A stretch of DNA of 64,000 nt, from contig JAXLZT010000001.1 in NCBI GenBank assembly GCA_046350795.1, forward strand, positions 309,780 to 373,779, written 5' to 3'. Numbering within the stretch: position 1 is the stretch's first letter; each line of letters begins with the position of its first letter. This stretch comes from Minisyncoccota bacterium. GTDB lineage: Bacteria; Patescibacteriota; Minisyncoccia; Phycocordibacterales; CALRHW01. Both the position numbers and the translations under genes were made by a program. Shown piece by piece: positions 10,700 through 60,140 of the stretch. Under the pieces are notes generated by a model. That model saw only the letters and a list, made by a program, of their open reading frames with translations. It was not told where the DNA came from and searched no databases.

Positions 10700-10703
10700 A
10701 AAC

Positions 10704-11243: not shown

Positions 11244-11255
11244 AAATACTTAAAA

Positions 11256-13964: not shown

Positions 13965-13982
13965 CGTGTTATCTTCAGATAA

Positions 13983-14873: not shown

Positions 14874-14914
14874 CACTTGAAAACTAGCCAAAATACTATA
14901 GTATCAAGTGTATT

Positions 14915-15883
14915 GTGGCATTTATTGATGAGCTAAAATTATATATAAAAGCGGGCGACGGTGGCAACGGCGTTGTTCGTTGGCGTCAGGAAAAGGGCAA
15001 AGACAAGGCCGGAGCTGCTGGTGGCAATGGTGGTGGCGGTGGAAGTGTATATGTACAGGCTGTACGCGACCTGGCTATTTTCCGTAAATATAAACATATA
15101 AAAGAAATTGTTGCAGAAAATGGTGGTCCTGGAATGAGAAATAGTATGCACGGTAAAAATGGTAAGGATCTCGTGATCGAGCTACCTATTGGCAGTGTGC
15201 TCACCAATCTTGCTAATGGTAAAAAATATAATCTTTTAAAAGACGGAGAAAAAATAATGATACTTGAGGGCGGTCGTGGCGGGCTCGGCAACGAACATTT
15301 CAAAGCATCTACAAATGTACGACCAAAAGAAAACACTCCTGGCAAAGAAGGGGAGTCTGCAGATTTTTTTATTGAGCTTGAGTTGGTAGCTGATCTGGGT
15401 CTAGTGGGTCTACCAAATGCTGGCAAATCCAGTCTGCTCAATGCACTCACCAATTCAAAAGCAACAGTGGGGAGCTATGAGTTTACAACGCTCGAGCCAA
15501 ACCTCGGTGATATGTACGGTTTTATTATTGCTGACATTCCTGGACTTATCGAAGGCGCATCGCAAGGTCGCGGTCTTGGACACAAATTTTTAAGACACAT
15601 AAAAAGGACGAGAATGATTCTGCACTGTATATCTTTGGAAAATGAAGATGTGGTTTCTGTCTATAAAACAATTCGTAAAGAGTTAAATGAATACAGTACG
15701 GAGCTTGCTTCAAAAAGAGAAATTATTTTACTTACAAAGACTGATTCTACTACGCCAGAAATTTTAAAAGAGAAGAAAAAAGCACTTGCGAAATTTAATA
15801 AAGATATATTTTCTGTATCTGTGCTTGACGATGCTTCTATAAAAGAGCTTAAAGATAGTCTAGTCAAAATGATGTCACAGTAG
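14915..15883 (+). CDS. obg: GTPase Obg/CgtA
   Basis: It has a GTG start. The Obg-fold glycine-rich N-domain is 'KAGDGGNGVVRWRQEKGKDKAGAAGGNGGGGGSVY', the G1 motif is 'GLVGLPNAGKSSLLNALT', and the G3 motif is DIPG. Confidence 0.9.
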   Translation: MAFIDELKLYIKAGDGGNGVVRWRQEKGKDKAGAAGGNGGGGGSVYVQAVRDLAIFRKYKHIKEIVAENGGPGMRNSMHGKNGKDLVIELPIGSVLTNLANGKKYNLLKDGEKIMILEGGRGGLGNEHFKASTNVRPKENTPGKEGESADFFIELELVADLGLVGLPNAGKSSLLNALTNSKATVGSYEFTTLEPNLGDMYGFIIADIPGLIEGASQGRGLGHKFLRHIKRTRMILHCISLENEDVVSVYKTIRKELNEYSTELASKREIILLTKTDSTTPEILKEKKKALAKFNKDIFSVSVLDDASIKELKDSLVKMMSQ

Positions 15884-15923
15884 TGGGCGCATTTTTGTCG
15901 TGATAATATAAAGGTAATAAATT

Positions 15924-31014: not shown

Positions 31015-31375
31015 TTGAGTCTTGTGTTGGATGATTGCTGTGGGCGCAAGCTCATAGAGGAAAGTCCGAACATACGGTCGCGCCTTCAAAAGCGTGACAA
31101 GAGTAGCGGGTAACACCCGTCCGGAGCAATCCGCGAGATGCGAACAGAGACGTCGCAAAGCGAAAGTGATGCGATATCCAAAGACGCCTTAAAACGATTT
31201 TGGATAAGCTCGCATGGCAACATGTGAGTTGCAACGGCTAAATTCTTACTTGTATGCAAGGCCGTGCTCTGCGCAAGCAGAGAGTGCCGCTTGATCCACT
31301 CGGTAACGAGATGGACAGATAAATAATCATCGTCCGCAAGGATACAGAATTCGGCTTATAGACACAAGACAAACA
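31015..31375 (+). ncRNA. rnpB: RNase P RNA (bacterial type A-like)
   Basis: Conserved boxes are 'GAGGAAAGUCCGAAC' (P4 5' strand) and 'ACAGAAUUCGGCUUAUA' (P4 3' strand). The P1 helix is GTCTTGTGT (31019-31027) pairing with ACACAAGAC (31362-31370). It is a GC-rich patch in an AT-rich intergenic region with a terminator right after. The track ORFs 30781..31158(-) and 31052..31234(-) fall inside it and are considered spurious. Confidence 0.8.
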
Positions 31376-44875: not shown

Positions 44876-45023
44876 GTCGTGCTCCTTGAGTAGCGGTTTT
44901 TGGGTAGAGAGCGAATTCTTTATATAAGATTATTTATTAATCAAACTGTGTCAACCTCTTGAAAGAGTGTCTTTTGGTGAGCCTAATCGAGATGCGACCC
45001 AAGGATTCATTGCCCTGTAAGGC

Positions 45024-45218
45024 TCATTTTAGCTCTTCCTGACTTCTTAATCGACCCTTCTCGAGAGTAGCTTTCTTTGTATACAAATGAGGGTTTTGCT
45101 TCTTATCTTGATCTAGTAACCATTGGAATACTGCGACCACTCTGTCGCTTTCTTCTTTAGTCCAATTTTTAGGATTTCTTTTATCTTCTTGGTTCATAGA
45201 AAGTGACAAAAGTGACAC
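45024..45218 (-). CDS. small hypothetical protein (64 aa)
   Basis: This is an ORF only; no motif was recognised. Confidence 0.3.
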   Translation of the reverse strand: MSLLSLSMNQEDKRNPKNWTKEESDRVVAVFQWLLDQDKKQNPHLYTKKATLEKGRLRSQEELK

Positions 45219-45252
45219 AGAATCAAGTATAAAAGTTACACCTCAATGTAAC

Positions 45253-46161
45253 TTAATTATCTATTTGGATTATCTTTGACCCGTTGTCTGGATCCTCAGT
45301 TCTTTGTTGTAGAGTAAGCTTTCTGTAGTGAGAACAAGAGAATTTTAAGAAGTCATCTATTTCATCAAGATCAATATTTCCTTTCATGAGATCAGAAGGA
45401 TGAATCGAGATAATTAGATTTTCACATATGTTCAGATTCTTTGATGATTCGATGTAGCTTGTGATTATTTCTTTAATAGCACCTCTACGAGTCATATATG
45501 AGTCTCTTCCGTGTTGGGTATTTATTAGCGGGATAGTTAAATTTACATTCCTACCAGAATCCAAGGCAACATATTGCCAGAGCCCATTTAATGCCTGTAT
45601 AAAGTCATCAATTTCTGACCGAACACGATTGTTGTCCTTTTTAACAGAATTCACTACTAGGTAAAACTTTTTACCGTTCTGCTCCACTTCAATAGTTTTA
45701 CCTATCTCATGTTTTTGACCAATCGTAACTTTTGCGGAAATATCAGTATTTAAGTGATCAACTTTGTTTGCATAAAACTTCTGGATCACCTGATTTTGAA
45801 TACTGTTAGCCTTAAGAGCATTACCGCCAAGAGACATATCAAATTCGTCATTCACAGGAACCACCAAGGCACCACTATTATTGAAAGCATCGCCAACCTT
45901 AACTTCAATATAACTGTCTTTATTTCGCAAATTGTATTTAAAAGACGTTCGGGGTCTATTTTTTACAAGCGAAAGAATGCAGACAAGAATAAAGACTCCA
46001 CTGAATAGATAAACATTTTTGAAAATACTGTCTGTACTTTCATTCGTGCTGTAGCTAAACATCTCGACAAACAACCAAAATATACCCACCCAAGATACAA
46101 TATCAATAAAAATATTCTTCAGGTTTCTCCACCATCTTTTTATTCTGAGTGAAATTTTCAT
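45253..46161 (-). CDS. ThsA-like effector candidate: two N-terminal TM helices + cytoplasmic Macro-like domain
   Basis: The TM helices are 'IVSWVGIFWLFVEMF' and 'VYLFSGVFILVCILSLV'. The cytoplasmic segment 'IEVKVGDAFNNSGALVVPVNDEFDMSLGGNALKANSI' resembles the Macro-domain N-terminal motif (GDIt...DAIVNAANs.LlgGGGV..AI). Its start overlaps the TIR gene stop by 4 nt (ATGA), indicating an operon. Confidence 0.5.
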   Translation of the reverse strand: MKISLRIKRWWRNLKNIFIDIVSWVGIFWLFVEMFSYSTNESTDSIFKNVYLFSGVFILVCILSLVKNRPRTSFKYNLRNKDSYIEVKVGDAFNNSGALVVPVNDEFDMSLGGNALKANSIQNQVIQKFYANKVDHLNTDISAKVTIGQKHEIGKTIEVEQNGKKFYLVVNSVKKDNNRVRSEIDDFIQALNGLWQYVALDSGRNVNLTIPLINTQHGRDSYMTRRGAIKEIITSYIESSKNLNICENLIISIHPSDLMKGNIDLDEIDDFLKFSCSHYRKLTLQQRTEDPDNGSKIIQIDN

Positions 46162-46661
46162 AGCCCTAGAGCAGTATAAGCATCTTGGTTATACCGAAAA
46201 GGTCCTGTTTTACCGGCTCTTTTGTATTGGTTGTGCAATGACTCCCATTCACTCAATGCTTTACTAATAATTTTTTGATTAAAACTAACATGGACAGCAA
46301 GTTCGGTATCTAAGATTGACGGACATAGGTCATCATCGTGATATCTTTTACCATTCAGATTTACGGCAATAATAGGAAGTCCTTTTTTGATTGCTTGCTC
46401 AATTTCCCAACGAACAAACTTGTGATGAAATTTTGTTTTCTCGCCAATAAGGATGATGAAAACCTTTGTATTGTTCAGACGTTCCCTCAAACTTGCCTTA
46501 ATGGATTCTTCGGTTGACCACGGCATTATATTTGTAAGGTCGTGGGCATCGTAGAAGTTAAAGTTTGTGTTATCGTTTTGTTTCCATGCTTGCATTAAGC
46601 GGTAGTAACGAATATCGTTATCCGCATCAAAGGCAACATAAGTTTTGTTTGTGTAAGCCAT
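46158..46661 (-). CDS. TIR-like domain protein (ThsB-like, DUF1863/TIR_2-type)
   Basis: 'KTYVAFDADNDIRYYRLMQAW...TKVFIILIGEKTKFHHKFVRWEIEQAIKKGLPIIAVNLN' aligns by eye with Bacillus cereus ThsB ('RVFFSFHYQDVIDF...TSVTCVLIGSQTFNRRWVRYEIMKSIEKGNKIIGIHIN'). Confidence 0.75.
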   Translation of the reverse strand: MAYTNKTYVAFDADNDIRYYRLMQAWKQNDNTNFNFYDAHDLTNIMPWSTEESIKASLRERLNNTKVFIILIGEKTKFHHKFVRWEIEQAIKKGLPIIAVNLNGKRYHDDDLCPSILDTELAVHVSFNQKIISKALSEWESLHNQYKRAGKTGPFRYNQDAYTALGL

Positions 46662-46666
46662 ACAGT

Positions 46667-46897
46667 TTAGCCCCTTGGTGGGAATGGGTCATTTCCATAG
46701 CTGTTACGCTCTTGGATCTTTCCGTCTTTACCATGAATAAAGTGTTCAACCTTTGTTTTTTCAGCAACTTTTTCAGCTCTATCGAGAGCATTATTTTTTG
46801 TATGATGTGAAGAAATAGGAGTTGATGATCCCTCTTTTTTGTTTTCCCACATACTACGATCTGAATTGTATACAGTGTGTATATTTTTGTTAGCCAT
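46667..46897 (-). CDS. DUF2188-family small protein
   Basis: The C-terminal 'FIHGKDGKIQERNSYGNDPFPP' matches the DUF2188 signature (iHgrDGkIrernsYGnDP.pp). Confidence 0.5.
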   Translation of the reverse strand: MANKNIHTVYNSDRSMWENKKEGSSTPISSHHTKNNALDRAEKVAEKTKVEHFIHGKDGKIQERNSYGNDPFPPRG

Positions 46898-46908
46898 ATA
46901 TTTATAAA

Positions 46909-47550
46909 TTAACTTTTAATAATTCCGACAACCTTTCCGCTTAACTGGAAATCATCACCCTCATGAATAAATATCGGGAGATATTTATCAGTTGATTCCG
47001 CCTCAAGAACGATACGATTGTTCGCTTTGTCATTTTTGTATCGTTTGATAGTTGCCATTCCGTCTATGACAGCAACAACGATGTCTCCGTTCTTGTAGCT
47101 TTTGTATCCACTATCCACCAAAACAAAATCTCCGCTTTCAATAGTATTTTTGTCATCTACTTTTGCGAGATTCATACTATTACCGTCTGCTATAACAGAA
47201 TAGAGATCTTTCTTGTTGTATGGCAACATAGAAGATGAGACCTTGAGATACTGCTGAATATTTTGTTCGGCAAATATAGTCGCAGGACCACAGTTTGCAG
47301 ATCCAACAACAGGGAGTGAGAACACAGTATTAACGGTTGATTTAACAAGACCTCGCTTTACAGGTTTTATAACCCCTTGTTCAAGGTTCATTTGAATCAT
47401 TCCAGCCTTTTCAAGCTGTAATAAGTGATATTTCACTATCTGCGGTTTGTCAGGCACGCCAATTTTATCGGCTATTGTTCTAAGGCTGTATGATCCAATA
47501 TTAGGATCACTATCTATGAGAGCTAAAAGCTGTTTCTGTTTGTTGTGCAT
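46909..47550 (-). CDS. lexA: LexA-like repressor (winged-helix DNA-binding domain + S24 peptidase domain)
   Basis: The N-terminal wHTH is 'IADKIGVPDKPQIVKYHLLQLEKAGMIQ'. The S24 domain has catalytic Ser ('ADGNSMN') and Lys ('MATIKRY'). The predicted cleavage region 'VVGSANCGPA' has Cys-Gly where canonical LexA has Ala-Gly. Confidence 0.75.
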   Translation of the reverse strand: MHNKQKQLLALIDSDPNIGSYSLRTIADKIGVPDKPQIVKYHLLQLEKAGMIQMNLEQGVIKPVKRGLVKSTVNTVFSLPVVGSANCGPATIFAEQNIQQYLKVSSSMLPYNKKDLYSVIADGNSMNLAKVDDKNTIESGDFVLVDSGYKSYKNGDIVVAVIDGMATIKRYKNDKANNRIVLEAESTDKYLPIFIHEGDDFQLSGKVVGIIKS

Positions 47551-47628
47551 ACACCTATTATAGCATACTTTTCAACTTACAACAATATAAATTTGACACT
47601 TTTGACGGCAATCTGATATACTTTCCCT

Positions 47629-48048
47629 ATGGAGCAAAGTTTGCAATTAAATCGAGTAACACAGCTTCCAAAGAAAGGTGAAAAAGTCATCGTTCTTGAG
47701 CTTACCGATATTCAATTGCACTCTAATGCAAGACCTACCCAATCGGTTGGTGGTGCAATACGACGCTCCATAGAAAATAATAAGCCTGGTCGTATCTTTT
47801 CTTCTCTTGAGAAGAAACAAGAATCAAGTGCTGATCAAAATTCAATAGAGTTCACCATGCCGTTTGCAATGAACGATCCTGTACTAAAGCAAACAATCCA
47901 TGACTACCAACAACAAGGTTATCGTGTATTGATTCAAATGCCGAAATCAGGACTACCGATTCATCTTGGCAAGGATGCTGTCGAATTTATGAATAGTACT
48001 CGAGGAAAGCGAATCTTGAGAAAGATAAAGAAAGACAAAGGAAATTAA
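47629..48048 (+). CDS. hypothetical protein divergently transcribed from lexA-like gene
   Basis: This is a 139-aa ORF with a basic C-terminus. No family was recognised. Confidence 0.35.
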   Translation: MEQSLQLNRVTQLPKKGEKVIVLELTDIQLHSNARPTQSVGGAIRRSIENNKPGRIFSSLEKKQESSADQNSIEFTMPFAMNDPVLKQTIHDYQQQGYRVLIQMPKSGLPIHLGKDAVEFMNSTRGKRILRKIKKDKGN

Positions 48049-48207
48049 ATAAAAACGCGTCGTAAAAGCGAATAGTGCAACGCCACAAGCCATGCCTATT
48101 CCGCGCAAGAAGTAGTTTGAGGTTTTTCGGACCTCTACTTATTTCGTGTGTGGAATAGGCTTTTTCTATATCCATACATTTTATTAAAGATTAATTAATA
48201 AAATGCT

Positions 48208-49482
48208 ATGAAAAAACTTTCATGGACTACAGGAGTTCGAGAGGTCAAAGACCTACTCCCTTGGCAAGAAAACCCAAGAAAAATCTCAAAGCAAGCGTTA
48301 GATAAGTTGAAAGAAAAGATCACACAAAACGGCTTCCACAGCGTGATCGTGATTGATACCGACAATACGATTCTGTCAGGGAATCAAAGAAAGGTTGCAC
48401 TCATGGAGCTTGGTATCAATACCGTAGACGTAATGATCCCTAGTCGTAAGCTAAGTGATGCAGAACGACGAAGAATCGGTATTGAAAGCAATATCAATGA
48501 CGGTGAATGGAATTTCGAGAAATTGAAGTCATTTGATCTGGAACTACTCCAATTTGCAGGATTCGATGAAAAAGAATTAGTGAAGTTCTGGGACGAAGAA
48601 AAAGACACTAAAGACGACAAGTTCGATGTAGACAAGGAACTCAAGAAAATTAAGACGCCTCAAACAAAGTTGGGTGATCTTATTATCATGGGTAATCATA
48701 AGTTGCTTTGCTCAAGTTCTACTGATATCACTGCGGTTAAAAAACTATTCGGTGATGATAGAGCTACTGCTATCTACAGTGATCCACCTTTTAATATTGG
48801 GCTTTCATATGACAAAGGCGTTGGTAATAAATCAAACTATGGTGGTTCATTTGATGATAATCAATCACCAGAAGCATACAAGGAATTTATTCGCCAAGTT
48901 CTCACATCATCACTCGCCATATCCACCAAAGATACACATGTTGCATTTTGGTGTGATGAAGCGTGGGTGTGGGTTTTTCAAACCTTATATATGGAACTGG
49001 GCGTAAAGAATCGTAGGCTAAATATTTGGATCAAGAACAACTCCTCGCCTATACCCACCGTCGCATTTAACAAGTGTGCGGAGTATTGCGTGTACGGCAC
49101 AAAAGGATCTCCGTATCTGTCTGATTTAGTCAAAAACCTTAACGAGATTCAAAACAAGAATTGCACAACTGGAAATCAACTTCTTGAAGATATCTCGAAC
49201 ATTTGGGCAACTAAACGACTGCCGTCAAACCAAATGGAGCACCCTACAAGCAAAAATCCTGAACTACACCACAAGTTCATCATGCGATGCACAAAGCCAG
49301 GAGACATAATCTTCGATGCCTTTTCTGGTTCTGCTAGCACCATGATCTGTGCGGAGCAACTTGATCGCAAAGTCTACTCACTTGAAATTGAACCCGTGTT
49401 CTGTGACTTGGCAATTCGCAGATACGAAAAATTGACTGGTCGGAAAGCAAAAGTAATCAAGAACTTCTATGAAAAAGAATAA
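48208..49482 (+). CDS. ParB-like nuclease domain fused to N6-adenine/N4-cytosine DNA methyltransferase (phage-type orphan MTase)
   Basis: The N-terminal ParB/Srx-like domain is 'SKQALDKLKEKITQNGFHSVIVIDTDNTILSGNQRKVA'. Motif IV is 'AIYSDPPFNIGLSY' (DPPY/F). The SAM-binding motif I near the C-terminus ('DIIFDAFSGSASTMICAE') indicates beta-class N6_N4 MTase topology. Confidence 0.8.
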   Translation: MKKLSWTTGVREVKDLLPWQENPRKISKQALDKLKEKITQNGFHSVIVIDTDNTILSGNQRKVALMELGINTVDVMIPSRKLSDAERRRIGIESNINDGEWNFEKLKSFDLELLQFAGFDEKELVKFWDEEKDTKDDKFDVDKELKKIKTPQTKLGDLIIMGNHKLLCSSSTDITAVKKLFGDDRATAIYSDPPFNIGLSYDKGVGNKSNYGGSFDDNQSPEAYKEFIRQVLTSSLAISTKDTHVAFWCDEAWVWVFQTLYMELGVKNRRLNIWIKNNSSPIPTVAFNKCAEYCVYGTKGSPYLSDLVKNLNEIQNKNCTTGNQLLEDISNIWATKRLPSNQMEHPTSKNPELHHKFIMRCTKPGDIIFDAFSGSASTMICAEQLDRKVYSLEIEPVFCDLAIRRYEKLTGRKAKVIKNFYEKE

Positions 49483-49876
49483 ATTTCAGGATCAGTTTCT
49501 TGATGAACTACGAAAAGTTCCGATCGTTCAAGTTGCTTGTGAGAAAACAGGATTGTCTCGCAATAGTGTTTATCGTTGGAGAAAAGATGATAAAGCATTT
49601 CTCAAGAAGATGGACGATGCACTTGCCGATGGTGTCGCATTGGTAAACGACATGAGTGAAAGCCAACTACTCACACTCATTAAAGAGAAAAATTATCCTG
49701 CAATCAGTTTCTGGCTTAAACATCGCAATGATAATTATAAAAACAAGCTAGAGATCACCACTAAAGAAGATTCTGAACAACTTACTCCTTCACAAGCAAA
49801 AATCGTGAAGCAGGCACTTAAGCTCGCCAATATAACAAAATCGAAATCGATTAAAAACATTAACTCTAAAAAGTAA
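49469..49876 (+). CDS. phage terminase small subunit-like HTH protein
   Basis: It has the HTH 'VACEKTGLSRNSVYRWRKDD'. It lies immediately upstream of TerL and overlaps the preceding gene by 14 nt. Confidence 0.5.
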   Translation: MKKNKFQDQFLDELRKVPIVQVACEKTGLSRNSVYRWRKDDKAFLKKMDDALADGVALVNDMSESQLLTLIKEKNYPAISFWLKHRNDNYKNKLEITTKEDSEQLTPSQAKIVKQALKLANITKSKSIKNINSKK

Positions 49877-49877
49877 C

Positions 49878-51374
49878 ATGACTAAAATAATTCCAAATGC
49901 ATTGGTGAATACCATGCTAAAAGATCGTTCCGTGCGAACATCTATTACAAAAGACAGTTTCCTGTATTTCTTCCACTTCTACTACGCCCACTATGTAAAA
50001 TACGAAACCGCTGACTTTCAGAAAGAGATTATTCATAATCTCGAAAAAAGCTCGATTGAGAATATGTACGTTGTCGCATTTCGTGGATCAGGAAAATCTA
50101 CAATGGTGACGACCGCATATCCTATCTGGGCAATACTTGGAAAACAACAAAAGAAGTTTTGTATTATCTTTTGCCAAACTCGAGCACAAGCAAAACAGCA
50201 TATGATGAACATTCGTACTGAGCTTGAGGGTAACGATGTTCTTAAAAAGGATCTCGGACCATTCCAAGAAGAAAGCGATGAGTGGGGTTCGTTCTCATTA
50301 GTATTCAAAAAGCACGGAGCAAGAATCACCGTAGCTTCTGCCGAGCAAAGTATCCGTGGCATTCGTCACAACGAACACCGCCCAGACTTAATAATCTGTG
50401 ATGACGTTGAGGACGTGCAATCGACCAAAACCCGTGAGGGACGAGATAAAACATACCATTGGCTTCGAGGTGAAGTTATCCCTGCTGGCGATAGAAACAC
50501 CCGACTAATTATTGTTGGAAACTTACTCCATGAAGATTCACTCTTGATGCGTATTAAAGACGAAATCGCCAAAGGTAAGGCAAAAGGAATATTCAAGGAG
50601 TACCCGCTTATAGATAATCATGGTGTGTGCTTATGGTCAGGTAAATACAAAAGCGAGAAAGATCTTGAGGATGAAAAGTTGAAAGTTTCTAGTGATATAT
50701 CATGGCAACGAGAATATCTATTGCGTATTATTCCAGACGATGATCAGGTTATTTATCCTGAATGGATCAACTACTACGACGAATTGCCAGGCGAAAAGCA
50801 CCGGGGATTCAGAGGCACTTATGCGGGTGTCGATCTTGCGATTTCAGCTTCAGAAACTGCTGATGACACTGCTGTTGTATTTGCTCATATATATTCACGC
50901 CGTGAGAAAATGCGAATATACATATTGCCTAATCCTATCGCAAAGAAACTTAATTTTCCTGCACAGGTAGATCTCATGAAAGATATTCGTAGTACGATGC
51001 TCATAAAAAGTACGGACGAGTTATTTGTAGAAAGCGTGGCGTACCAAGAAGCACTTCCGCAAATGCTCGAACACCAAGGTGTTAAAGCGACAGCAATCAA
51101 ACCTAAAGGAGATAAAAGAACACGACTTGCTCTTACTTCGACCGCAATAAAATCATCAAAGATCTTATTTCCAAGACAAGGATGCGAGAGACTTATTGAG
51201 CAACTTGTAGGGTTTGGAGTAGAAAAGCATGACGACCTTGCCGATGCATTTTCGTTGCTTATAAACTCAACCATGGATAAGCATGCTAAAGATTCAACAT
51301 GGCTTATGTACTGGATGGGAGATGAAGAACCTTTGTACTATAGAGATTACGTTGATATGGACATAAAAAAGTAG
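49878..51374 (+). CDS. phage terminase large subunit (ATPase + RNaseH-like nuclease domains)
   Basis: Walker A is 'VAFRGSGKSTMV' and Walker B is 'LIICDDVED'. The nuclease-domain motif is 'YAGVDLAISASETADDTAVVFAHI'. Confidence 0.8.
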   Translation: MTKIIPNALVNTMLKDRSVRTSITKDSFLYFFHFYYAHYVKYETADFQKEIIHNLEKSSIENMYVVAFRGSGKSTMVTTAYPIWAILGKQQKKFCIIFCQTRAQAKQHMMNIRTELEGNDVLKKDLGPFQEESDEWGSFSLVFKKHGARITVASAEQSIRGIRHNEHRPDLIICDDVEDVQSTKTREGRDKTYHWLRGEVIPAGDRNTRLIIVGNLLHEDSLLMRIKDEIAKGKAKGIFKEYPLIDNHGVCLWSGKYKSEKDLEDEKLKVSSDISWQREYLLRIIPDDDQVIYPEWINYYDELPGEKHRGFRGTYAGVDLAISASETADDTAVVFAHIYSRREKMRIYILPNPIAKKLNFPAQVDLMKDIRSTMLIKSTDELFVESVAYQEALPQMLEHQGVKATAIKPKGDKRTRLALTSTAIKSSKILFPRQGCERLIEQLVGFGVEKHDDLADAFSLLINSTMDKHAKDSTWLMYWMGDEEPLYYRDYVDMDIKK

Positions 51375-51446
51375 TCGCGAGTATGCGACGTATTTCTAGT
51401 TCTGCATAGTCTATGCACCACCGACTGGTCTGTCATTAATTAATAT

Positions 51447-52730
51447 ATGACAGAAGTCGAACAAAACCAGATGAAATATTGCTTGTACGCTCGTAAATCA
51501 ACCGAAGCAGAAGAAAAACAAGCACTTTCTATTGATTCTCAAATCAAAGAAATGAAACAGATTGCCGAGCGTGAAAATCTAACCATAGTTGAGATCCGTA
51601 AAGAATCACATAGCGCAAAGGAATCTGGACAAAGACCTGTATTTGAAGAGATTGTAAAAGATATCGATACGGGAATATTCAATGGAATCATTACATGGGC
51701 ACCAGATAGACTTTCTCGTAATGCAGGTGATCTTGGAAAGCTTGTAGACAGAATGGATCAAAGGAAACTGATTCAGATCAAAACTTTTGGTCAGACTTTT
51801 TCTAATTCACCAAGTGACAAGTTCCTGCTGATGATTCTTTGTAGTCAGGCAAAGCTTGAAAACGACAACAAAAGTATCAATGTAAAGCGTGGCATGAGAG
51901 CTAGGTGCGAAATGGGATTATGGCCAGTACAACCACCAACGGGATATAGAAAGCCTAATCAACGATTGGCTAAGTGTGAGGTAGAAATTGATCCAGAACG
52001 AGCCGATACTATACGACAAATATTTGAGAAGATTAGTTATGAAAAATGGAGTGTATCAAAAGTACATGCATGGTTACGATATGATCTTGATTTCAAAACT
52101 CACAGAGGTTTTCATTTAAGTCTTGGAAATGTATTCAAGATTATAAACAATACTTTCTACTACGGTCGCTTTGAGTTTCCTCAAGGATCAGGTATTTGGT
52201 ATGAGGGAAAACATAAACCTATTATCACAAAAGAGTTGTTTGATGAGACAAGAAATTCTATCAAATCGCAGACGATAAAATCACAAGGCAAGGAATTTGC
52301 GTTTACAAGAATCATGAAATGCGGAGCTTGTGGATCTGGTATTACTGCCGATGAGAAGTTCAAGAAGTTACTGAATGGCGGAGTGAACCGACATGTATAT
52401 TATCGATGCACAAAAGCAAAAGACAGGAATTGTAAAAATCCTGCCCTGAATGAAACTGAACTCATTGAATCACTACTCGATATGGTTGATACCTTGAACA
52501 TAAATAAGGTAAAACTTACTGCAAAGCTTGATGTTGAAATTCAAAAGTTTAAGAAACTACAAGCAATGTTTTTGGGCAAAAAGAAGACTGAGAAAATAGA
52601 GCCTATTGATCTTAAGGACTATACAAAATTTGTACTAAAAGAAGGATCTCCGTTAGAGCAGAGATCTATCTTGGAATGTATCAGTAGTGAATTGGTCTTG
52701 AAGAATAAGAAAATAGTTGCTAGCAACTAA
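51447..52730 (+). CDS. large serine recombinase (resolvase/invertase catalytic domain + recombinase + zinc-ribbon domains)
   Basis: 'YCLYARKSTEAEEKQALSIDSQ' is the Ser-recombinase active-site motif (YxRxST...SxxxQ). It is followed by 'ITWAPDRLSRN', the recombinase domain, and the zinc ribbon 'CGACGSG...YYRC'. Confidence 0.85.
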   Translation: MTEVEQNQMKYCLYARKSTEAEEKQALSIDSQIKEMKQIAERENLTIVEIRKESHSAKESGQRPVFEEIVKDIDTGIFNGIITWAPDRLSRNAGDLGKLVDRMDQRKLIQIKTFGQTFSNSPSDKFLLMILCSQAKLENDNKSINVKRGMRARCEMGLWPVQPPTGYRKPNQRLAKCEVEIDPERADTIRQIFEKISYEKWSVSKVHAWLRYDLDFKTHRGFHLSLGNVFKIINNTFYYGRFEFPQGSGIWYEGKHKPIITKELFDETRNSIKSQTIKSQGKEFAFTRIMKCGACGSGITADEKFKKLLNGGVNRHVYYRCTKAKDRNCKNPALNETELIESLLDMVDTLNINKVKLTAKLDVEIQKFKKLQAMFLGKKKTEKIEPIDLKDYTKFVLKEGSPLEQRSILECISSELVLKNKKIVASN

Positions 52731-52734
52731 GAAA

Positions 52735-53916
52735 TCAAGACTTTTTTCCAGCATGTTCAACAATGAATTTTGCTCGTTCATAAAGCTCATCATAAGTTAA
52801 AATCTCAATGTTTTTGGAGTCACGTCGAAACAATTCAAATGTTTTTGCTTTTATTTGGTTTTCTTTATCAGTACCATCAAATTGTTTTGTTGATCCGATA
52901 ACTAAGATACTCTTGGGATCAAATGCTTTTTGCTTAATTAATTCTCCTTTATCATTATAGTTTCCATTTACATTTGTTTCTGCTGTAATTTGCCAACTAG
53001 CTTTTTGCTCTAGTATTTGAGACAAGCCTGAAACTAGATCATCCGAGAGTGTCCACGAATTTGAACGATTCTTATCTTTACCAAATAAAGGGGTATCGTG
53101 CTTTTTAAGTTCAACTAGTACTGTAAATTTACTACACCCTAAAAGGAAGTCGTTAATAACAGATTCTTTTCCTGATACGTCTGTACCTGATACGTGTGCT
53201 TCTTTTTGTAAAATTCCAAGGAATCGATAATCTAGTCCATATCCAAAAATCCAATCATTTATATTAAAGAAATGTTGCCAGACAGATTCATGTCTCGTAT
53301 CTGTTATATTATTCTCGGAAATGTAGGTTGCAAAATAGCCCTCTTGATTTAAAAGATTATTAAAAATTTCTAGTTGCTTCTTACGGTATCCTATATTTAC
53401 AATATCAGTTGAAGTTATAATACCACTAGCTAAAACCTCCTCGATAATCTCTTGACCGTCCTTTCTCAATAATAGTGTTTTAATTTTTTTCTTTGTTTCA
53501 TCGTCTATATTGGGGAGATTATCATCAGCAAGCGTAATTCTTCTTTCATTCACGTCGCCAAGGTTTAATTCTGAAAGGAGTTGTAGATATCCAATGATCT
53601 GCTTGAAAAATGGAAAAGAGAAGACGATTTGTTCATCTTGTTCAACATAACCTTTGTTTTTGTAAAACTTAAATCGCTTAAAAGAAACATTGGTAATCTC
53701 ATTATTTTGTTTAATAAATGTAAAAGTAGTTTTAATTTTATTCCTTATGACAGGATAAGGATGTTCTACTTCAATAGCATCTGGTACACCATTTTCATCT
53801 CTTGAGACAATGGTAAAATATTTCCCAGCTTCATTTTTGAATTTATGGGTATATAGTGTGTCGGTTTTGTAATTATCGACTATTTTTTCTTCTGAATTTT
53901 CAATTTCTAGTCCCAT
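52735..53916 (-). CDS. putative PD-(D/E)xK nuclease-domain protein, DUF4263/Shedu (SduA)-like
   Basis: The 393-aa length fits the family. The candidate nuclease motif is '...GTDVSG...TVLVELKKHD' (D...ExK on a hydrophobic beta-strand), with a C-terminal '...EILTYDELYERAKFIV'. It lies immediately downstream of hsdR in the same orientation. Confidence 0.4.
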   Translation of the reverse strand: MGLEIENSEEKIVDNYKTDTLYTHKFKNEAGKYFTIVSRDENGVPDAIEVEHPYPVIRNKIKTTFTFIKQNNEITNVSFKRFKFYKNKGYVEQDEQIVFSFPFFKQIIGYLQLLSELNLGDVNERRITLADDNLPNIDDETKKKIKTLLLRKDGQEIIEEVLASGIITSTDIVNIGYRKKQLEIFNNLLNQEGYFATYISENNITDTRHESVWQHFFNINDWIFGYGLDYRFLGILQKEAHVSGTDVSGKESVINDFLLGCSKFTVLVELKKHDTPLFGKDKNRSNSWTLSDDLVSGLSQILEQKASWQITAETNVNGNYNDKGELIKQKAFDPKSILVIGSTKQFDGTDKENQIKAKTFELFRRDSKNIEILTYDELYERAKFIVEHAGKKS

Positions 53917-53921
53917 ATAAT

Positions 53922-56900
53922 TTATTCCTTAAACTTACCACCTGAAATATCAAAGAATCTTTCAAAGAAGTTTGTGAATTTAGTTAATACGCTCTCACGT
54001 TTTTTGGTTCGATCACCACTTGGAGAAAAGCGAGATACTGGGGGTAGTACTTTTGTTATTGCGGTTCCTGTTGTTGCGACACTTCCGTCACGGAAAGCAT
54101 TTTGTATGAAAGTATATGTTGCGTCATGATCGAGATTCTCACTAGCAATAATCTTTTCTAATTCCTCAATTTTCTTCTCTTCAACAAACTTTTTCCAGTC
54201 ATCATCAACAGCAGAGTGTACATCTAGAGAAGTAATGAATTGATTGATTAGATCTTTCTTATTTCTTAACTCAACACTAGAATCAATAGCTTTATTAATA
54301 TCAATTAGTAGTTCTCGATTATTTATATGATCCTCGTGATATCTCCTGATTAGTCCCAACACATAATCAATATTGATTTCAATTTGTTTTATAAGCTCCA
54401 TTTCAAAGACTACATCTTCATTGATGTTTTCTTTATCTTCTTCGATTGTCTTTCGGAACTCATTGTACAAATCAATGTACATACTGTGATAATCTTGAAC
54501 ATCTCGATCAGTCAAAATTTCATTACCTGCAAACTCGTCAAAAGTTGCAAGAATGTTACGAACACGCAATACCGCACCATACAGCTTAATAAATTCCTTT
54601 TGTTGTTGTTCACTAATGATTCGTTCACCTACAGGGAACTTCTCCAAAAGTTCATCTACTAAACTCCTATATCCTCTGATTTCTTTGTCGCCATCTTTGT
54701 AACCGTTGTAATAATCCGCATATGCTTTCAAAAGCACAACACCACAAGCCTCTTTGTCACCAAAGAGAGCAATTGATTCATTTGTGGCTTTTTCAAGATT
54801 TCGGAAACAAACAATATTTCCAAAAGTCTTTACGCTATTCAAAATACGGTTAGTTCTTGAATATGCTTGAAGCAAACCATGTAGACGGAGATTTTTATCT
54901 ACCCAAAGAGTATTGAGGGTAGTCGCATCAAATCCAGTTAAGAACATGTTCACTACGATAAGAATATCGATTTCTCTGTCTTTTACACGCTGACTAACAT
55001 CCTTATAATAGTTTTGAAATTTATCAGAAGAAGTGTCATAAGACGTGCCAAACATCGCATTGTAGTCCTTAATTGCATTATCTAGAAAATCCCTCGAACT
55101 AACATCAAGACCGCTCGTATCTTCAGAATTTTCATCGATCATTCCGTCAGCATCCTCGTCATTAACCCCAAAACTGAAAATGGTTGCGATTTTAAGTTGC
55201 TTATCACTTGGCACATCAGCTAATTGCTTCTTAAACTCCATGTAATACTTTTTAGCAACATCAATTGATGAAACTGCAAAGATAGAGTTAAATCCTGCCA
55301 ACCGTCGATCCTTTAATTTGTAGAAACTATTACGCTTTGTCTTTTGATCAAAATGTTCACGTATGTAGCCAACAATGTTTTCCAAGCGTTCAGGAGAAGC
55401 AAGAACAGCCTCACGATCAATGTCGCTCACTTTCTTGTCCTCAATATTTTCAGCTTCTTTTACAGTTGAAACGTAATCAACCTTAAATGGTAGTACGTTT
55501 TTATCTGCAATCGCATCAACGATTGTATAAGTGTGTAATTTTTCACCAAAAGCTTGCTCAGTAGTTTTTAGATCGGGTCGTCCTCCAGAAGAAGCATTCA
55601 TCGCAAAAATCGGTGTACCAGTAAAGCCAAAAAGATGATAGTTCTTAAATGTCTTTGTAATCGCAGCATGCATATCACCAAACTGTGATCGGTGACATTC
55701 ATCGAATATCAAAACTACATGATCATCAAAAATTTCGTGATTACCATTCCGACCAATAAAACGATCTAGTTTTTGAATGGTCGTGATAATAATCCGTGCA
55801 TTTGGGTTTTCAAGTTGTTTCTTCAGTAATGCTGTTGAGGTGTTACTATTCGCCGCACCTTTTTCAAACTTGTCATATTCACGCATTGTTTGATAATCCA
55901 AATCTTTACGATCCACAACAAAAACAACCTTATCTACATATGACAACTTACTTGCAAGCTGTGCTGTTTTAAAGCTAGTAAGTGTTTTTCCTGACCCTGT
56001 TGTATGCCAGATGTAACCACCAGCCTCTACAGTGCCGAGTTTTTTGTAGTTAGTACTAACCTCAATCCTGCTTAGAATTCTTTCTGTTGCAACAATCTGA
56101 TATGGTCGCATTACCAAGAGTTGTTTATCAGTAGTGAAAACGCAGTACCGAGTGAGAATGTTTAAAAGCGTGTGTTTTGCAAAAAAAGTTTTTGTAAAAT
56201 CCATCAAATCAGTAATGGGTCGGTTTGTAGCATCTGCCCACCAACTTGTGAATTCGAAACTGTTACTTGTACGTTTTCCTTTCTTTACAGTTCCTTCATT
56301 TGATTCTCTTATGTGTTGTCTTCGTACAGTGTTACCGTAATACTTTGTATGTGTACCGTTTGAAATTATAAATAGTTGTACATATTCAAAAAGACCAGAA
56401 GAAGCCCAGAAGCTTTCTCTTTGATAACGATTGATCTGATTAAAAGCTTCTTGAATGGCAACACCACGGCGTTTCAACTCAATATGAACAAGAGGTAGAC
56501 CATTAACAAGAACAGTTATGTCATATCGGTTTGATCTTTTTCCGTCTTCAGTAGCGTACTGGTTAATAACTTGAAGACTGTTGTTATGAATATTTTTCTT
56601 GTCTATCAAATCAATATTCTTGAAAGTGCCGTCATCTCGCTTTAGTACTTTTGTATTGTCTTCTTGAATAGTTGTCGTTTTATCTTCAATACTTTGATTT
56701 GGATTTGCTAGTTCATTTACAAAAAATCTTTCCCATTCAAGGTCTGTAAATTCAAAATTATTTAGTTTTTCTAGCTGTTTACGTAAGTTAACAACCAAAG
56801 TTGCTTCAGATGTAATCGGGAGATATTCGTATGCCTGTGTTTCTAATTGCTTTACAAGTGCACGTTCAAGTTCCGCCTCACTTTGATAGTGAGCCACTCT

Positions 56901-56981
56901 CTTACCGTCAGAAACATATTCTGCAACTACAGTACTTTGCGAATTTTCCGCAACTAAATTGTATTTATTGTTAATTGACAT
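53922..56981 (-). CDS. hsdR: type I restriction enzyme R subunit (HsdR)
   Basis: It is 1019 aa. The N-terminal HsdR_N nuclease region is followed by SF2 helicase motifs: motif I is 'WHTTGSGKTLTSFK', the DEAH-like box is 'IFDECHRSQ', and motif VI is 'QAYSRTNR'. Confidence 0.9.
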   Translation of the reverse strand: MSINNKYNLVAENSQSTVVAEYVSDGKRVAHYQSEAELERALVKQLETQAYEYLPITSEATLVVNLRKQLEKLNNFEFTDLEWERFFVNELANPNQSIEDKTTTIQEDNTKVLKRDDGTFKNIDLIDKKNIHNNSLQVINQYATEDGKRSNRYDITVLVNGLPLVHIELKRRGVAIQEAFNQINRYQRESFWASSGLFEYVQLFIISNGTHTKYYGNTVRRQHIRESNEGTVKKGKRTSNSFEFTSWWADATNRPITDLMDFTKTFFAKHTLLNILTRYCVFTTDKQLLVMRPYQIVATERILSRIEVSTNYKKLGTVEAGGYIWHTTGSGKTLTSFKTAQLASKLSYVDKVVFVVDRKDLDYQTMREYDKFEKGAANSNTSTALLKKQLENPNARIIITTIQKLDRFIGRNGNHEIFDDHVVLIFDECHRSQFGDMHAAITKTFKNYHLFGFTGTPIFAMNASSGGRPDLKTTEQAFGEKLHTYTIVDAIADKNVLPFKVDYVSTVKEAENIEDKKVSDIDREAVLASPERLENIVGYIREHFDQKTKRNSFYKLKDRRLAGFNSIFAVSSIDVAKKYYMEFKKQLADVPSDKQLKIATIFSFGVNDEDADGMIDENSEDTSGLDVSSRDFLDNAIKDYNAMFGTSYDTSSDKFQNYYKDVSQRVKDREIDILIVVNMFLTGFDATTLNTLWVDKNLRLHGLLQAYSRTNRILNSVKTFGNIVCFRNLEKATNESIALFGDKEACGVVLLKAYADYYNGYKDGDKEIRGYRSLVDELLEKFPVGERIISEQQQKEFIKLYGAVLRVRNILATFDEFAGNEILTDRDVQDYHSMYIDLYNEFRKTIEEDKENINEDVVFEMELIKQIEINIDYVLGLIRRYHEDHINNRELLIDINKAIDSSVELRNKKDLINQFITSLDVHSAVDDDWKKFVEEKKIEELEKIIASENLDHDATYTFIQNAFRDGSVATTGTAITKVLPPVSRFSPSGDRTKKRESVLTKFTNFFERFFDISGGKFKE

Positions 56982-58191
56982 ATTCGTTGAAGGTTAAAAG
57001 TTTTCCTCGGTAATATTCATATTGTGATCGACGTGCCTTAAGTTCAGCAGGTAATCCGATTGAAATATTGTTTACCAAATCATCAAATTTATCGAGGATG
57101 CTCACTATTCTTTTTTGTTCTTCAAGCGGAGGTACGGGTATTTGTATTTTTAGAATATCGTCTTTGCGAAGATTTGTTTGATCAGCACCGTTATCGTATC
57201 TAAGCAGTTGTCTGTTTCTACTTAATATGTAAAAAAGATATTTTGAATATATTTCATCTTTATTTTTAACACTCAAAGCACAGATTCGTTGATTTAAAGT
57301 GTATTTGTCGTTCTCATCAACATAAAAACATTTTGCTAGTGCTTTTCCGTTTGGGAGATCGCTCATAACCATCAAAATATCATTTTCAAATACAGGAGAA
57401 ATCTGACTGACAGAATATTTTTTAACTCTTCCATCTGTCGAAACAAATTTAGAATTAACAACAATATATTTGCCGTTTTCATCTATTAGTTTTTCGTGTC
57501 CTTTTCCATTCATAAAGTTAATAACCTGATCAAGTGGTAACCATTGTGTACTTCCCGCATTATCAAACGTCAATAATTGCGTACGGTAATGCTCATACTG
57601 CTTTTTTCTAGCTTCCAGCTCTGCTTCCAGCTCTGCTTCCAGCTCGGTAAAACTATTAAGTAGTTTGACAATCTCTTCTTGTATAGCAAGTGGTGGAATT
57701 GGTATTTTATACTCATCCCTAATTACTGATGGATGGGCTTTTTTGGTATAGTCAAAAACCTTTGTCATCCATGCGTCTGACAACACAAAATATAAATATT
57801 TTGTGTTCAATGCCTTTGTGTTGTTAACTTTTAACCACCCAGAAACATTTGTTACTGAATACTTATGGGTTGGTCGATAAAAAAAGCGACCACCTCCATC
57901 TATGGACCATGAAATACGCTCATCATCAAACATATATTTGCCATATCTACCAAATTCACCCGAACCAGTAGCGGAAGATGAGTATACGGGATAATCACCT
58001 GGTATTTTCGCTAAGTCATTTTTTGAGATAACTTCTCCTCGACCCAGCTTAATCATGTCTAAATCTTCAAGTTCTCCGAGTTTCTTAAACTCTACTCCGT
58101 TAGGAGATAGTTCAAGGATGAGTTTTTCAATTTTACTTTGAGTTTTAGTCATGTTTCCTTGTTTTTTCGATTTCTCTAACAATTTCATCAA
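56971..58191 (-). CDS. hsdS: type I restriction-modification specificity subunit (HsdS) with two target-recognition domains
   Basis: There are two TRDs, each followed by a conserved helical region. The central conserved region contains the tandem tetrapeptide repeat (ELEA)x3. It overlaps hsdM by 47 nt and hsdR by 11 nt. Confidence 0.85.
   Translation of the reverse strand: MMKLLEKSKKQGNMTKTQSKIEKLILELSPNGVEFKKLGELEDLDMIKLGRGEVISKNDLAKIPGDYPVYSSSATGSGEFGRYGKYMFDDERISWSIDGGGRFFYRPTHKYSVTNVSGWLKVNNTKALNTKYLYFVLSDAWMTKVFDYTKKAHPSVIRDEYKIPIPPLAIQEEIVKLLNSFTELEAELEAELEARKKQYEHYRTQLLTFDNAGSTQWLPLDQVINFMNGKGHEKLIDENGKYIVVNSKFVSTDGRVKKYSVSQISPVFENDILMVMSDLPNGKALAKCFYVDENDKYTLNQRICALSVKNKDEIYSKYLFYILSRNRQLLRYDNGADQTNLRKDDILKIQIPVPPLEEQKRIVSILDKFDDLVNNISIGLPAELKARRSQYEYYRGKLLTFNEYVN
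57611..57646. repeat. perfect 12-bp tandem repeat x3 (gcttccagctct) inside hsdS central conserved region, encoding (ELEA)3
   Basis: The plus-strand sequence is gcttccagctct gcttccagctct gcttccagctcg. Confidence 0.9.
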
Positions 58192-59740
58192 TCGACTTGC
58201 GGAGTTCGTTTTGTCGAATAACTATTTGATCAATCTCTGAGTTAAGTTCAGTAATATTTATAACTTCACGAGTATCTTCTGCAACAACATAACTTGAGAC
58301 ATCAAGCTTGTATGCATTATCAGAAATGTCCTTATTACTTACTAATTTAGCAAAGTGCTCTATATCCTTTCTCTCAATGAAAGCAGCCAGTATCTTTTTT
58401 CTATTTTCATCACTAAGTTTATTTTTATTTCCGCCACGAACAAATTCTGTTGAAGCATCTATGAAAAGTGTTCTGTTATCTTTTTTGCTCTTCTTAAGAA
58501 CAACAATACAAGTTGCAATACCTGTACCGAAGAAGAGGTCTTGAGGTAATTGGATAACAGTGTCCACATAGTTATTATCAATCAAATATTTTCTGATTTT
58601 CTGCTCAGCACCACTACGATAGAGAACCCCTGGGAATTCAACAATCGCCGCAGTTCCACTTGTAGAAAGCCATGAGAGCATGTGCATTGTAAATGCAAGA
58701 TCTGCTTTACTTTTAGGTGCTAGAACTCCAGCAGGAGAGAATCTTGGATCATTAATAAGTATAGGATTAGCATCACCCTCCCAATTAATTGAATATGGTG
58801 GATTTGAAACTATTGCATCAAATGGCTCATCGTCCCAGTGTTTAGGGTCGGTTAATGTATCTCCGTGAGCGATATCGAAATTATTGTAATTAACATCGTG
58901 CAAAAACATGTTAATACGACACAGGTTGTAAGTGGTTAGATTTATTTCTTGCCCATAAAAACCTTGTCTTACATTTTCCTTACCAAGTACCTTGGCAAAT
59001 TTAAGAAGTAGAGATCCTGATCCACAACAAGGATCGTATACTTTATTAACTTCCTTTTTACCGACTGTTGTAATCTCAGCGAGAAGCTCACTAACTTCTT
59101 GAGGTGTGTAATATTCTCCACCAGATTTTCCTGCGTTTGAGGCATACATTGCCATGAGGTACTCATACGCATCACCAAAAGCATCGATTGTATTATCAGC
59201 ATAATCACCTAGACGAAGATCACCAATTGCTTCTAGAAGTTTTGTGATTCTTTGATTTCTTTTTTCTACGGTACCACCCAACTTGTTTGAATTAACATCC
59301 AAATCATCAAATAGACCCTTGAGATCTTCTTCGCTACTTGAACCTTTCGCAGAACTTTCAATATTACTAAATACGTTAGAAAGGGTTTCGTTTAGATTTG
59401 CATTGTTTCGTGCATTTTTACGAACATTAACAAAAAGCTCGCTAGGTAAGATGTAAAATCCTTTTTCTTTTACAGTATCAGCACGACCGAATTCAGCTTC
59501 TTTATCAGAGAGTGAAGTATAGTCAAAATCTTTATTTCCTGAGCGTCGTTCATCAGCATTAATATAATTTGTTAGGTTTTCGCTGATGAATCTATAAAAA
59601 AGTATTCCAAGAACATATTGTTTAAAATCCCATCCATCCACACTACCTCGAAGATCATTGGCAATTTGCCAAATTGCACGATGGAGTTCAGCTCGTTCTT
59701 GTTCTTTTGTTGTATTTAAATTTGTTTTATCTTTACTCAT
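58145..59740 (-). CDS. hsdM: type I restriction-modification DNA methyltransferase subunit (HsdM, N6-adenine)
   Basis: The N-terminal HsdM_N domain is 'LHRAIWQIANDLRGSVDGWDFKQYVLGILFYRFISE'. Motif I is 'VYDPCCGSGSLLL' and motif IV is 'IVSNPPYSINW'. Confidence 0.9.
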   Translation of the reverse strand: MSKDKTNLNTTKEQERAELHRAIWQIANDLRGSVDGWDFKQYVLGILFYRFISENLTNYINADERRSGNKDFDYTSLSDKEAEFGRADTVKEKGFYILPSELFVNVRKNARNNANLNETLSNVFSNIESSAKGSSSEEDLKGLFDDLDVNSNKLGGTVEKRNQRITKLLEAIGDLRLGDYADNTIDAFGDAYEYLMAMYASNAGKSGGEYYTPQEVSELLAEITTVGKKEVNKVYDPCCGSGSLLLKFAKVLGKENVRQGFYGQEINLTTYNLCRINMFLHDVNYNNFDIAHGDTLTDPKHWDDEPFDAIVSNPPYSINWEGDANPILINDPRFSPAGVLAPKSKADLAFTMHMLSWLSTSGTAAIVEFPGVLYRSGAEQKIRKYLIDNNYVDTVIQLPQDLFFGTGIATCIVVLKKSKKDNRTLFIDASTEFVRGGNKNKLSDENRKKILAAFIERKDIEHFAKLVSNKDISDNAYKLDVSSYVVAEDTREVINITELNSEIDQIVIRQNELRKSIDEIVREIEKTRKHD

Positions 59741-60015: not shown

Positions 60016-60068
60016 TTTGTTTGCTAGTTTCGACCCTTGTCGAGTGCTCGAACTAGCTCTCTCTATTG

Positions 60069-60140
60069 TGACCCTACCGGGAATCGAACCCGGCTTTGCG
60101 CCTTGAAAGGGCACTGTCCTAACCGATAGACGATAGGGCC
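60069..60140 (-). tRNA. tRNA-Glu (anticodon TTC)
   Basis: The reverse complement folds with acceptor GGCCCTA/TAGGGTC, anticodon stem GTGCC/GGCGC with loop CTTTCAA, and T-arm CCGGG-TTCGATT-CCCGG. No encoded CCA. Confidence 0.8.

Follow-up and report, generated by a model that had tools for sequence, protein, structure and literature searches.

In type II Thoeris, the closest described relative of the locus examined here, the signal is the histidine conjugate of ADP-ribose (His-ADPR) (10.1101/2024.01.03.573942), and nucleotide binding induces oligomerisation of the Macro domain of the effector ThsA (PMC11204291). In E. coli, thsA and a subgroup-9 thsB2 gene alone protect the cell, and the transmembrane (TM) helices are needed (10.64898/2026.01.22.701046). 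The active site of EcThsB2 consists of Y8 and E89, a Tyr-Glu arrangement reported only in ThsB proteins that are paired with a TM-Macro ThsA (PMC11204291). We analysed a stretch of 64,000 nucleotides (nt) from contig JAXLZT010000001.1 (hereafter the window, to which all coordinates refer) of a Minisyncoccota bacterium of the candidate phyla radiation (CPR), whose genome is labelled at NCBI as a Candidatus Paceibacterota metagenome-assembled genome (MAG; MFO0718771.1 and neighbours, 562-kb contig). Two adjacent genes of this window, thsB and thsA, lie on a 7.7-kb integrative element and very probably constitute a genuine abortive-infection system of the type II Thoeris kind.

An initial annotation, made from the DNA letters alone, had placed three minus-strand open reading frames (ORFs) at this locus, and all three are present: thsA (45253..46161, 302 residues), thsB (46158..46661, 167 residues) and a DUF2188 gene (46667..46897, 76 residues). 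The stop of thsB and the start of thsA share 4 nt as ATGA, the coupling described in that annotation, and the motifs quoted there were found in the proteins. Its central proposal, a TIR-type ThsB coupled to a 2TM + Macro ThsA as type II Thoeris in a CPR genome, agrees with hidden Markov model (HMM) searches, solved homologues, a fold search and the conserved pairing of the two genes. As a canonical type II Thoeris, the locus can be called automatically by PADLOC or Pfam. The further claim that such modules are rarely annotated in CPR genomes holds for the NCBI product names, which are only 'DUF6430 domain-containing protein' for ThsA and 'TIR domain-containing protein' for ThsB, and an NCBIfam scan gave no model fitting ThsA, ThsB, the DUF2188 protein or a Shedu nuclease encoded nearby. 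It does not hold more widely, as PADLOC and Pfam recognise both proteins and CPR defensomes have already been surveyed, the density of defence systems being highest in Paceibacteria (PMC12259885).

HMM searches, which the initial annotation had proposed for both proteins, matched ThsB to the Pfam family ThsB_TIR (PF08937, DUF1863; E = 2.1e-22, over the gathering cutoff) and to the PADLOC model ThsB PDLC00429 over residues 1-167 of 167 (E = 2.1e-74). The nearest solved homologue is EcThsB2 (PDB 8V6T; E = 1.1e-30), to which ThsB aligns over its full length, with weaker matches to 9UV0 (E = 4e-10), which was taken as BaThsB since it was deposited alongside 9UUZ, and to B. cereus ThsB (6LHY; E = 5.8e-6). 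Y8 and E86 of ThsB align to the active-site Y8 and E89 of EcThsB2, and both are unchanged in 17 sequences, the window protein and 16 orthologues from widely differing phyla. The C-terminal tail ends in YTALGL. The WxxxE motif described for ThsB2 in a 2026 preprint was given no weight; W26 is invariant, the window protein reads WKQND, and the last position varies in the clade. Judged by its sequence, ThsB is a putative TIR-like signal synthase of the EcThsB2 or 'subfamily 9' type.

ThsA matched the Pfam family ThsA_Macro (PF20016) across the whole profile (E = 6.9e-28), and the Pfam scan found no other family in it, SIR2 and SLOG included. The initial annotation had left the effector domain uncertain and suggested that it might be a new membrane effector; the domain instead belongs to the ThsA_Macro family. 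The PADLOC model ThsA PDLC00414 covers residues 18-275 (E = 2.8e-38), the full-length models including the N-terminus. Two hydrophobic segments, at residues 17-35 and 48-68 (Kyte-Doolittle means of about 2.0), coincide with helices 14-38 and 50-67 of an AlphaFold2 (AF2) model, so hydropathy and model together predict two N-terminal TM helices (about 17-35 and 48-68) ahead of a C-terminal ThsA-type Macro domain (about 85-254). The first predicted helix holds two conserved acidic residues, D20 (29/33) and E33 (30/33), an unusual feature of a membrane anchor that may have a part in oligomerisation or in the formation of pores. The structure prediction and Foldseek comparison that had been suggested for the 302-residue protein also led to ThsA: with the AF2 model (mean predicted local distance difference test (pLDDT) 82.8, predicted TM-score (pTM) 0.78) as the query against PDB, the eight best matches were the ThsA Macro structures 8V6Q/R, 8R66 and 8V6S (E from 9e-11 to 4e-8, target TM-scores of 0.71-0.77), and generic macro domains ranked after them. 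A ThsA profile built from 33 sequences, the source of all clade conservation counts given here, matched the EcThsA Macro structures 8V6Q/R (E = 3e-9), the His-ADPR-bound ThsA Macro domain of B. amyloliquefaciens 8R66 (E = 1.5e-8) and PcThsA 8V6S (E = 1e-3) in PDB.

The putative ligand residues of ThsA are D91, Q122, S172, T215-R219 and H254, with equivalences to 8R66 and 8V6R taken from HMMER sequence alignments and not from coordinate superposition. D91, which corresponds to the adenine N6 contact (Ec D83, Ba D100), and D108, which corresponds to a structural Asp (Ec D100), are both invariant in the clade. The ribose Ser (Ec S175, Ba S194) is S172 and is kept in 32/33 sequences. The adenine-stacking residue (Ec H259, Ba Y277) is H254, with H, Y or F at this position in 29/33. 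R240 of the B. amyloliquefaciens protein, which holds the histidine carboxylate of His-ADPR, is matched by R219, again invariant. From the alignments the pocket can be read as divergent yet functional for an ADP-ribose (ADPR) conjugate, and the most likely ligand would be His-ADPR, because the carboxylate-binding Arg is kept and ThsB falls in the class proposed to make His-ADPR.

A scan for relatives of ThsA, with one genome per species, found 20 loci. They occur in CPR lineages (Magasanikbacteria, Paceibacterota, Uhrbacteria, Saccharibacteria and a 'Patescibacteria group' bin) and in Bacteroidales, Zixibacteria, Calditrichaceae, Pseudohongiella and other Gammaproteobacteria, Omnitrophota, Chloroflexota and others. 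Pairing was counted over the 16 loci in which DNA upstream of thsA was present and ThsA identity was 32% or more, and in every one of these orthologous loci (16/16) the gene immediately before thsA encodes a ThsB orthologue. Nonsynonymous divergence (dN) was 0.12-0.50 against a synonymous divergence (dS) that was saturated in nearly all comparisons, the single computable dN/dS being 0.09 (ThsB against the locus L008). The pairing, together with dN far below saturated dS, indicates that both genes are under purifying selection and have spread horizontally as a unit. One of these loci, L007, lies on a 1.38-Mb contig labelled Bacteroidales (CAXXNW010000002.1). Its ThsA shares 80% identity with the CPR protein and is accompanied by its ThsB, and the pair is flanked by genes for serine recombinases; either the genes were transferred recently between phyla or the MAG carries a wrong label.

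Trigger, signal, membrane effect and transcription unit we infer as follows. As in the characterised homologues, phage infection would activate ThsB, which would turn NAD+ (with histidine) into an ADP-ribose conjugate, most likely His-ADPR. The signal would bind the cytoplasmic Macro domain of ThsA, and the ligand-bound Macro domains would assemble into oligomers and so bring the two N-terminal TM helices together in clusters, leading to membrane damage and to growth arrest or cell death before phage progeny are released. Expression would probably start from the lysogeny-side (repressor-side) promoter of the element, in 47551..47628, while the element is resident, because thsBA ends a closely packed co-oriented string of four genes, S24-DUF2188-thsB-thsA. 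The first gene of this string encodes an S24 LexA/CI-like autopeptidase repressor (46909..47550, minus strand; PF00717, E = 2.1e-20; phrog_4 transcriptional repressor), which matches TIGR00498 lexA at E = 7.8e-23, under that model's cutoff. Its stop lies 11 nt from the DUF2188 start, and the DUF2188 stop lies 5 nt from the thsB start. The divergent intergenic 'switch' region between S24 and orf139 (47551..47628) holds promoter-like sites on both strands, TTGACA-18-TATACT on the plus strand (11/12 with TG, 47593-47622) and a 9/12 site on the minus strand (47611-47584), both as consensus matches only; no operator-like repeats were found in this region.

Several observations weigh against the system as just described. 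Purified EcThsB2, the nearest solved ThsB, had no NADase activity in vitro (PMC11204291). The system of E. coli ATCC 25922 causes growth arrest without classical cell-death markers (10.64898/2026.01.22.701046), so that 'membrane pore and death' perhaps oversimplifies the outcome. Promoter and terminator counts did not exceed shuffled background, and the operon structure rests on gene spacing only. The other points concern the ThsA pocket: the Macro domain is only 17-21% identical to the characterised ThsA Macro domains; the distal-ribose Asn (Ec N114, Ba N133) is Q122 here, with Gln in 31/33 of the clade; the phosphate loop GSGITR of the E. coli and B. amyloliquefaciens proteins is NTQHGR here, with T215, H217, G218 and R219 invariant; and this loop is the sole segment of the AF2 model with pLDDT below 50. 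Q122 and the divergent phosphate loop mean that the exact ligand could differ.

These pocket substitutions, to which the replacement of Ec K262 by an invariant Asp257 is to be added, are the grounds for supposing that the architecture is that of Thoeris but that the ligand of this ThsA clade is not His-ADPR but some other derivative of ADPR, such as a conjugate with imidazole or a different amino acid. The invariance of His217 within the altered loop and the low identity to solved Macro domains both speak for such a different signal. We nevertheless consider it unlikely, as the conserved partner is close to EcThsB2 over its full length and shares its Tyr/Glu site, Shi et al. argue that ThsB proteins of the EcThsB2 class make His-ADPR (PMC11204291), and the counterpart of R240 in 8R66 and the adenine contacts are kept. 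A type II Thoeris signalling through His-ADPR is thus the reading retained here, and the clade, with its divergent pocket, offers a natural test case for how strictly this type II signal is conserved.

The thsBA pair is carried by an integrative, phage-satellite-like element of 7.7 kb (44975..52715). Homology to two copies from other samples (L001 and L002, about 92% nt identity) extends from 44973-44976 to 52714-52715, beyond which the flanks are unrelated, and the SecA region of the L001 host is only 65.6% identical to that of the window. The sharp homology edges, the unrelated flanks and the divergence of SecA together mark out these 7.7 kb as one separate unit, transferred between species. 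The genes of the element form two arms, one running from the switch region through S24, DUF2188, thsB and thsA to orf64, and the other through orf139, a methyltransferase gene, TerS and TerL to a large serine recombinase gene. At the element end downstream of thsA, orf64 (45024..45218, minus strand; 57-64 residues) is kept in all element copies and had no Pfam, PHROG or PADLOC match. The plus-strand arm encodes a ParB_N + N6_N4 DNA methyltransferase (48208..49482; PF01555, E = 9.9e-28), a TerS-like helix-turn-helix protein (49469..49876; phrog_4044, E = 1.5e-09), TerL (49878..51374; phrog_38, E = 7.6e-77) and the large serine recombinase (51447..52730; phrog_95 integrase, E = 5.6e-63), which has Resolvase, Recombinase and Zn_ribbon_recom domains.

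Pfam and PHROG scans of 44975..52715 found no capsid, tail or recognisable replication genes, so the element resembles a phage satellite or a minimal cryptic prophage. The satellite-type features present are the serine recombinase, the S24 repressor, the lack of virion structural genes, the small size and mobility as a unit. No helper phage was identified: five IMG/VR contigs with a related TerL carry elements of this same type, and the ORFs examined on them included no recognised gene for a capsid or tail. No att repeats could be identified at the element ends, the cores of serine recombinases being too short to call. Some copies of the element (L004 and L005) bear deletions.

Comparison of the window element with L001 and L002 gene by gene revealed that its parts differ in age. 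The nt identity between copies is 100% for thsA and 99.8% for thsB; it is 96-97% for DUF2188, 94% for S24, 93% for the methyltransferase, 90-92% for both TerS and the serine recombinase, and 78-80% for TerL. Because thsBA is 99.8-100% identical while the backbone is lower, the cassette is much younger than the backbone and reflects a recent exchange or sweep. Sibling elements carry other cargo in the slot that follows S24 and DUF2188. Four of them (L030, L031, L033 and L034) hold a pair of genes of the cyclic-oligonucleotide-based antiphage signalling system (CBASS; L030:6234-7759), encoding a CD-NTase of 307 residues (PADLOC cyclase, E = 7e-106) and a Cap15-type 2TM effector of 199 residues (E = 8e-57). 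The slot of L032 (5087-6333) and L035 encodes a different ThsB_TIR of 190 residues and then a 223-residue protein with one N-terminal TM helix, which matched no Pfam or PADLOC family and is a candidate for a new TIR-associated effector. A further sibling, L037 (IMG/VR UViG_3300009666_001272), encodes at 3582-5530 S24, a 123-residue protein, a 135-residue ThsB_TIR and a 187-residue member of the 8xMP family of octameric membrane proteins; between TerL and the recombinase it has a second cargo region (9657-17144) with a reverse transcriptase and a type III restriction-modification (R-M) system (Res helicase + methylase). The cassettes seen in the slot are thus type II Thoeris, CBASS-Cap15, TIR + 8xMP and TIR + an unclassified 1-TM protein.

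The location inside a 7.7-kb integrative element, beside its repressor, also allows the view that the pair chiefly serves the element, as a superinfection-exclusion or addiction module, with defence of the host as a side effect. The exchange of a 99.8-100% identical cassette among elements whose backbones are 78-94% identical fits this view, and defence hotspots on prophages and satellites are well known (PMC9122126). It would alter the beneficiary, but the molecular mechanism would be the same, and most orthologous thsBA pairs of other phyla sit outside this type of element; we regard it as distinctly unlikely and keep to host defence by Thoeris.

The DUF2188 gene had been proposed as a possible third component. 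Its product matched PF09954 (E = 1.3e-18), the PADLOC candidate PDC-S16 (E = 5.5e-27) and phrog_3220. A search for DUF2188 at the 16 orthologous thsBA loci (in L007-L024) gave none, even with phmmer at E < 10 and filters off. Its absence from orthologous loci means that it is not a Thoeris component, and DUF2188 as a core Thoeris gene was rejected. It belongs to the backbone of the mobile element: a 75-residue DUF2188 protein of the same 90%-identity cluster occupies the same place, directly after S24, in siblings whose next two genes are not thsBA, and a nearly identical one also precedes cargo without recognisable signalling genes. CPR homologues at a greater distance (59-83% identity) stand first in operons of variable content, next to LexA/S24 genes, one of these operons having a ThsB_TIR gene. 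Temperate phages of Streptococcus and Gordonia have DUF2188 in their lysogeny region, close to the repressor or integrase and with no TIR genes nearby. DUF2188 is accordingly a backbone 'leader' gene of the cargo operon and not part of Thoeris; a regulatory role is possible.

A three-gene system, in which DUF2188 is required as a regulator, sensor or second effector, draws on its position 5 nt from thsB on the same strand, on the match to a PADLOC defence candidate and on the way in which CPR DUF2188 genes repeatedly head operons with TIR or CD-NTase genes. DUF2188 has also been linked to defence loci elsewhere: it was noted beside the damage-responsive regulators CapH/CapP, including at a cyclase + TIR locus (10.1101/2022.04.27.489752), and a 2025 preprint lists it as a 'putative effector' in a Thoeris-rich island. 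Against this stand its occurrence in 0/16 orthologous thsBA loci, its place ahead of CBASS or of non-signalling cargo, and its presence in lysogeny modules of phages that have no TIR genes nearby. In addition, it diverges with the backbone (96-97%) and not with the cassette, L037 has an unrelated 123-residue gene at its position, and two genes, thsA and thsB2, suffice in E. coli (10.64898/2026.01.22.701046). We therefore hold a three-gene system to be very unlikely and treat thsB and thsA as the whole of the Thoeris system. The 123-residue gene of L037 was also considered as a divergent DUF2188, which BLASTP ruled out.

That the locus is a decaying, non-functional remnant is highly improbable: capsid, tail and recognisable replication genes are missing from the element and the L004 and L005 copies bear deletions, but neither ORF is disrupted, no key residue has been lost, purifying selection on both genes is strong, and an identical ThsA protein occurs on at least 16 contigs from independent samples.

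The DUF2188 protein has an almost invariant C-terminal motif, SYGNDPFPPRG, and its AF2 model (pLDDT 81.9) is a small beta/alpha/beta unit. Its profile had no match in PDB, and the model had no Foldseek match in PDB below E = 0.1. Four of its CPR homologues (L042, L044, L045 and L048) adjoin genes for proteins of 524-573 residues that fuse a LexA DNA-binding domain, an S24 peptidase and a DNA methyltransferase, an unusual combination, and in L048 an EcoRV-like endonuclease gene is adjacent to this repressor-methylase fusion. Taken with the exchanged cassettes, the element family suggests a tentative and still doubtful generalisation, namely a family of TerL/TerS mini-elements in CPR bacteria, possibly satellites, in which S24 and DUF2188 lead swappable cassettes of 'signal synthase + small membrane effector', DUF2188 acting as a functional regulator or adaptor that might, for instance, tie the cargo to repressor cleavage and DNA damage. 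The family supplies a concrete context for the otherwise unexplained DUF2188 protein.

Other features of the window lie outside the element. Just past its recombinase end, the region 52735..59740 encodes a Shedu nuclease (SduA_C, 393 residues) and a complete type I R-M system (HsdR, HsdS and HsdM), followed by a tRNA-Glu at 60068..60140. A type IIG R-M fusion takes this place in L001, L002, L004 and L005, and homology on the tRNA-Glu side persists in L004 (93%); 52735..59740 is a variable defence island beside a tRNA. Elsewhere, the window has a very large ORF of 2122 residues (22988..29356, plus strand) and a bacterial class A RNase P RNA (31019..31374), whose score of 105.1 bits barely exceeds the Rfam gathering score of 100, which suggests a divergent version of this RNA.

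The locus leaves the current understanding of Thoeris unchanged and adds a well-supported type II system to the defences of a CPR bacterium that is ultra-small and probably episymbiotic. The element points to a route by which CPR bacteria gain defence, as cassettes on small integrative elements that cross species. The more interesting leads go beyond the original claim, and are the slot led by S24 and DUF2188, the unclassified TIR partners and the divergent phosphate loop; the element family, a hotspot in CPR genomes for new TIR-associated effectors, has more potential than the Thoeris pair itself.

Among the known systems, the locus is most like those of E. coli, EcThsA + EcThsB2 of CFT073 (8V6Q/8V6R and 8V6T) and thsA-thsB2 of ATCC 25922, with which it shares the same two-gene logic. 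ThsB resembles EcThsB2 in full-length homology, in the Tyr8/Glu active site and in the C-terminal tail, and ThsA resembles EcThsA in its 2TM + Macro architecture, the EcThsA Macro domain being the best structural match and its D83, D100, S175 and H259 recurring as D91, D108, S172 and H254. The Macro domains are, however, only about 21% identical, and N114, GSGITR and K262 of EcThsA are Q, NTQHGR and D here. The E. coli loci have two ThsBs, whereas this one has a single ThsB and lies in a CPR host on a mini-element that encodes TerL. Type II Thoeris of B. amyloliquefaciens Y2 (8R66) has the same architecture, and its D100, Y277, Ser194 and Arg240 correspond to D91, H254, S172 and R219; its Macro domain is 17% identical, its N133 is Q122 here, and ThsB of the window is closer to EcThsB2 than to 9UV0. 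With type I Thoeris (B. cereus MSX-D12, with a SIR2-SLOG ThsA) the locus shares the scheme of a TIR ThsB that makes an NAD-derived signal to activate ThsA, but it has no SIR2 or SLOG domain, its effector would be a membrane protein and not an NADase, and the cyclic ADP-ribose signal 3'cADPR is not expected.

CBASS with a CD-NTase and a Cap15/2TM effector likewise combines a signal synthase with a small membrane effector, and occupies the identical slot in the four siblings described above, yet the synthase is a CD-NTase and not a TIR protein, and both the signal and the sensor domain are different. The defence hotspots of P2 phages and P4 satellites (PMC9122126) offer the parallel for the carrier, as they too combine a conserved mobile backbone with a fixed slot in which defence systems are swapped. 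The backbone found here, with S24, DUF2188, the ParB-methyltransferase, TerS/TerL and the serine recombinase, is unrelated to theirs; its hosts are CPR bacteria, and its assignment as a satellite, read from its genes, is tentative.

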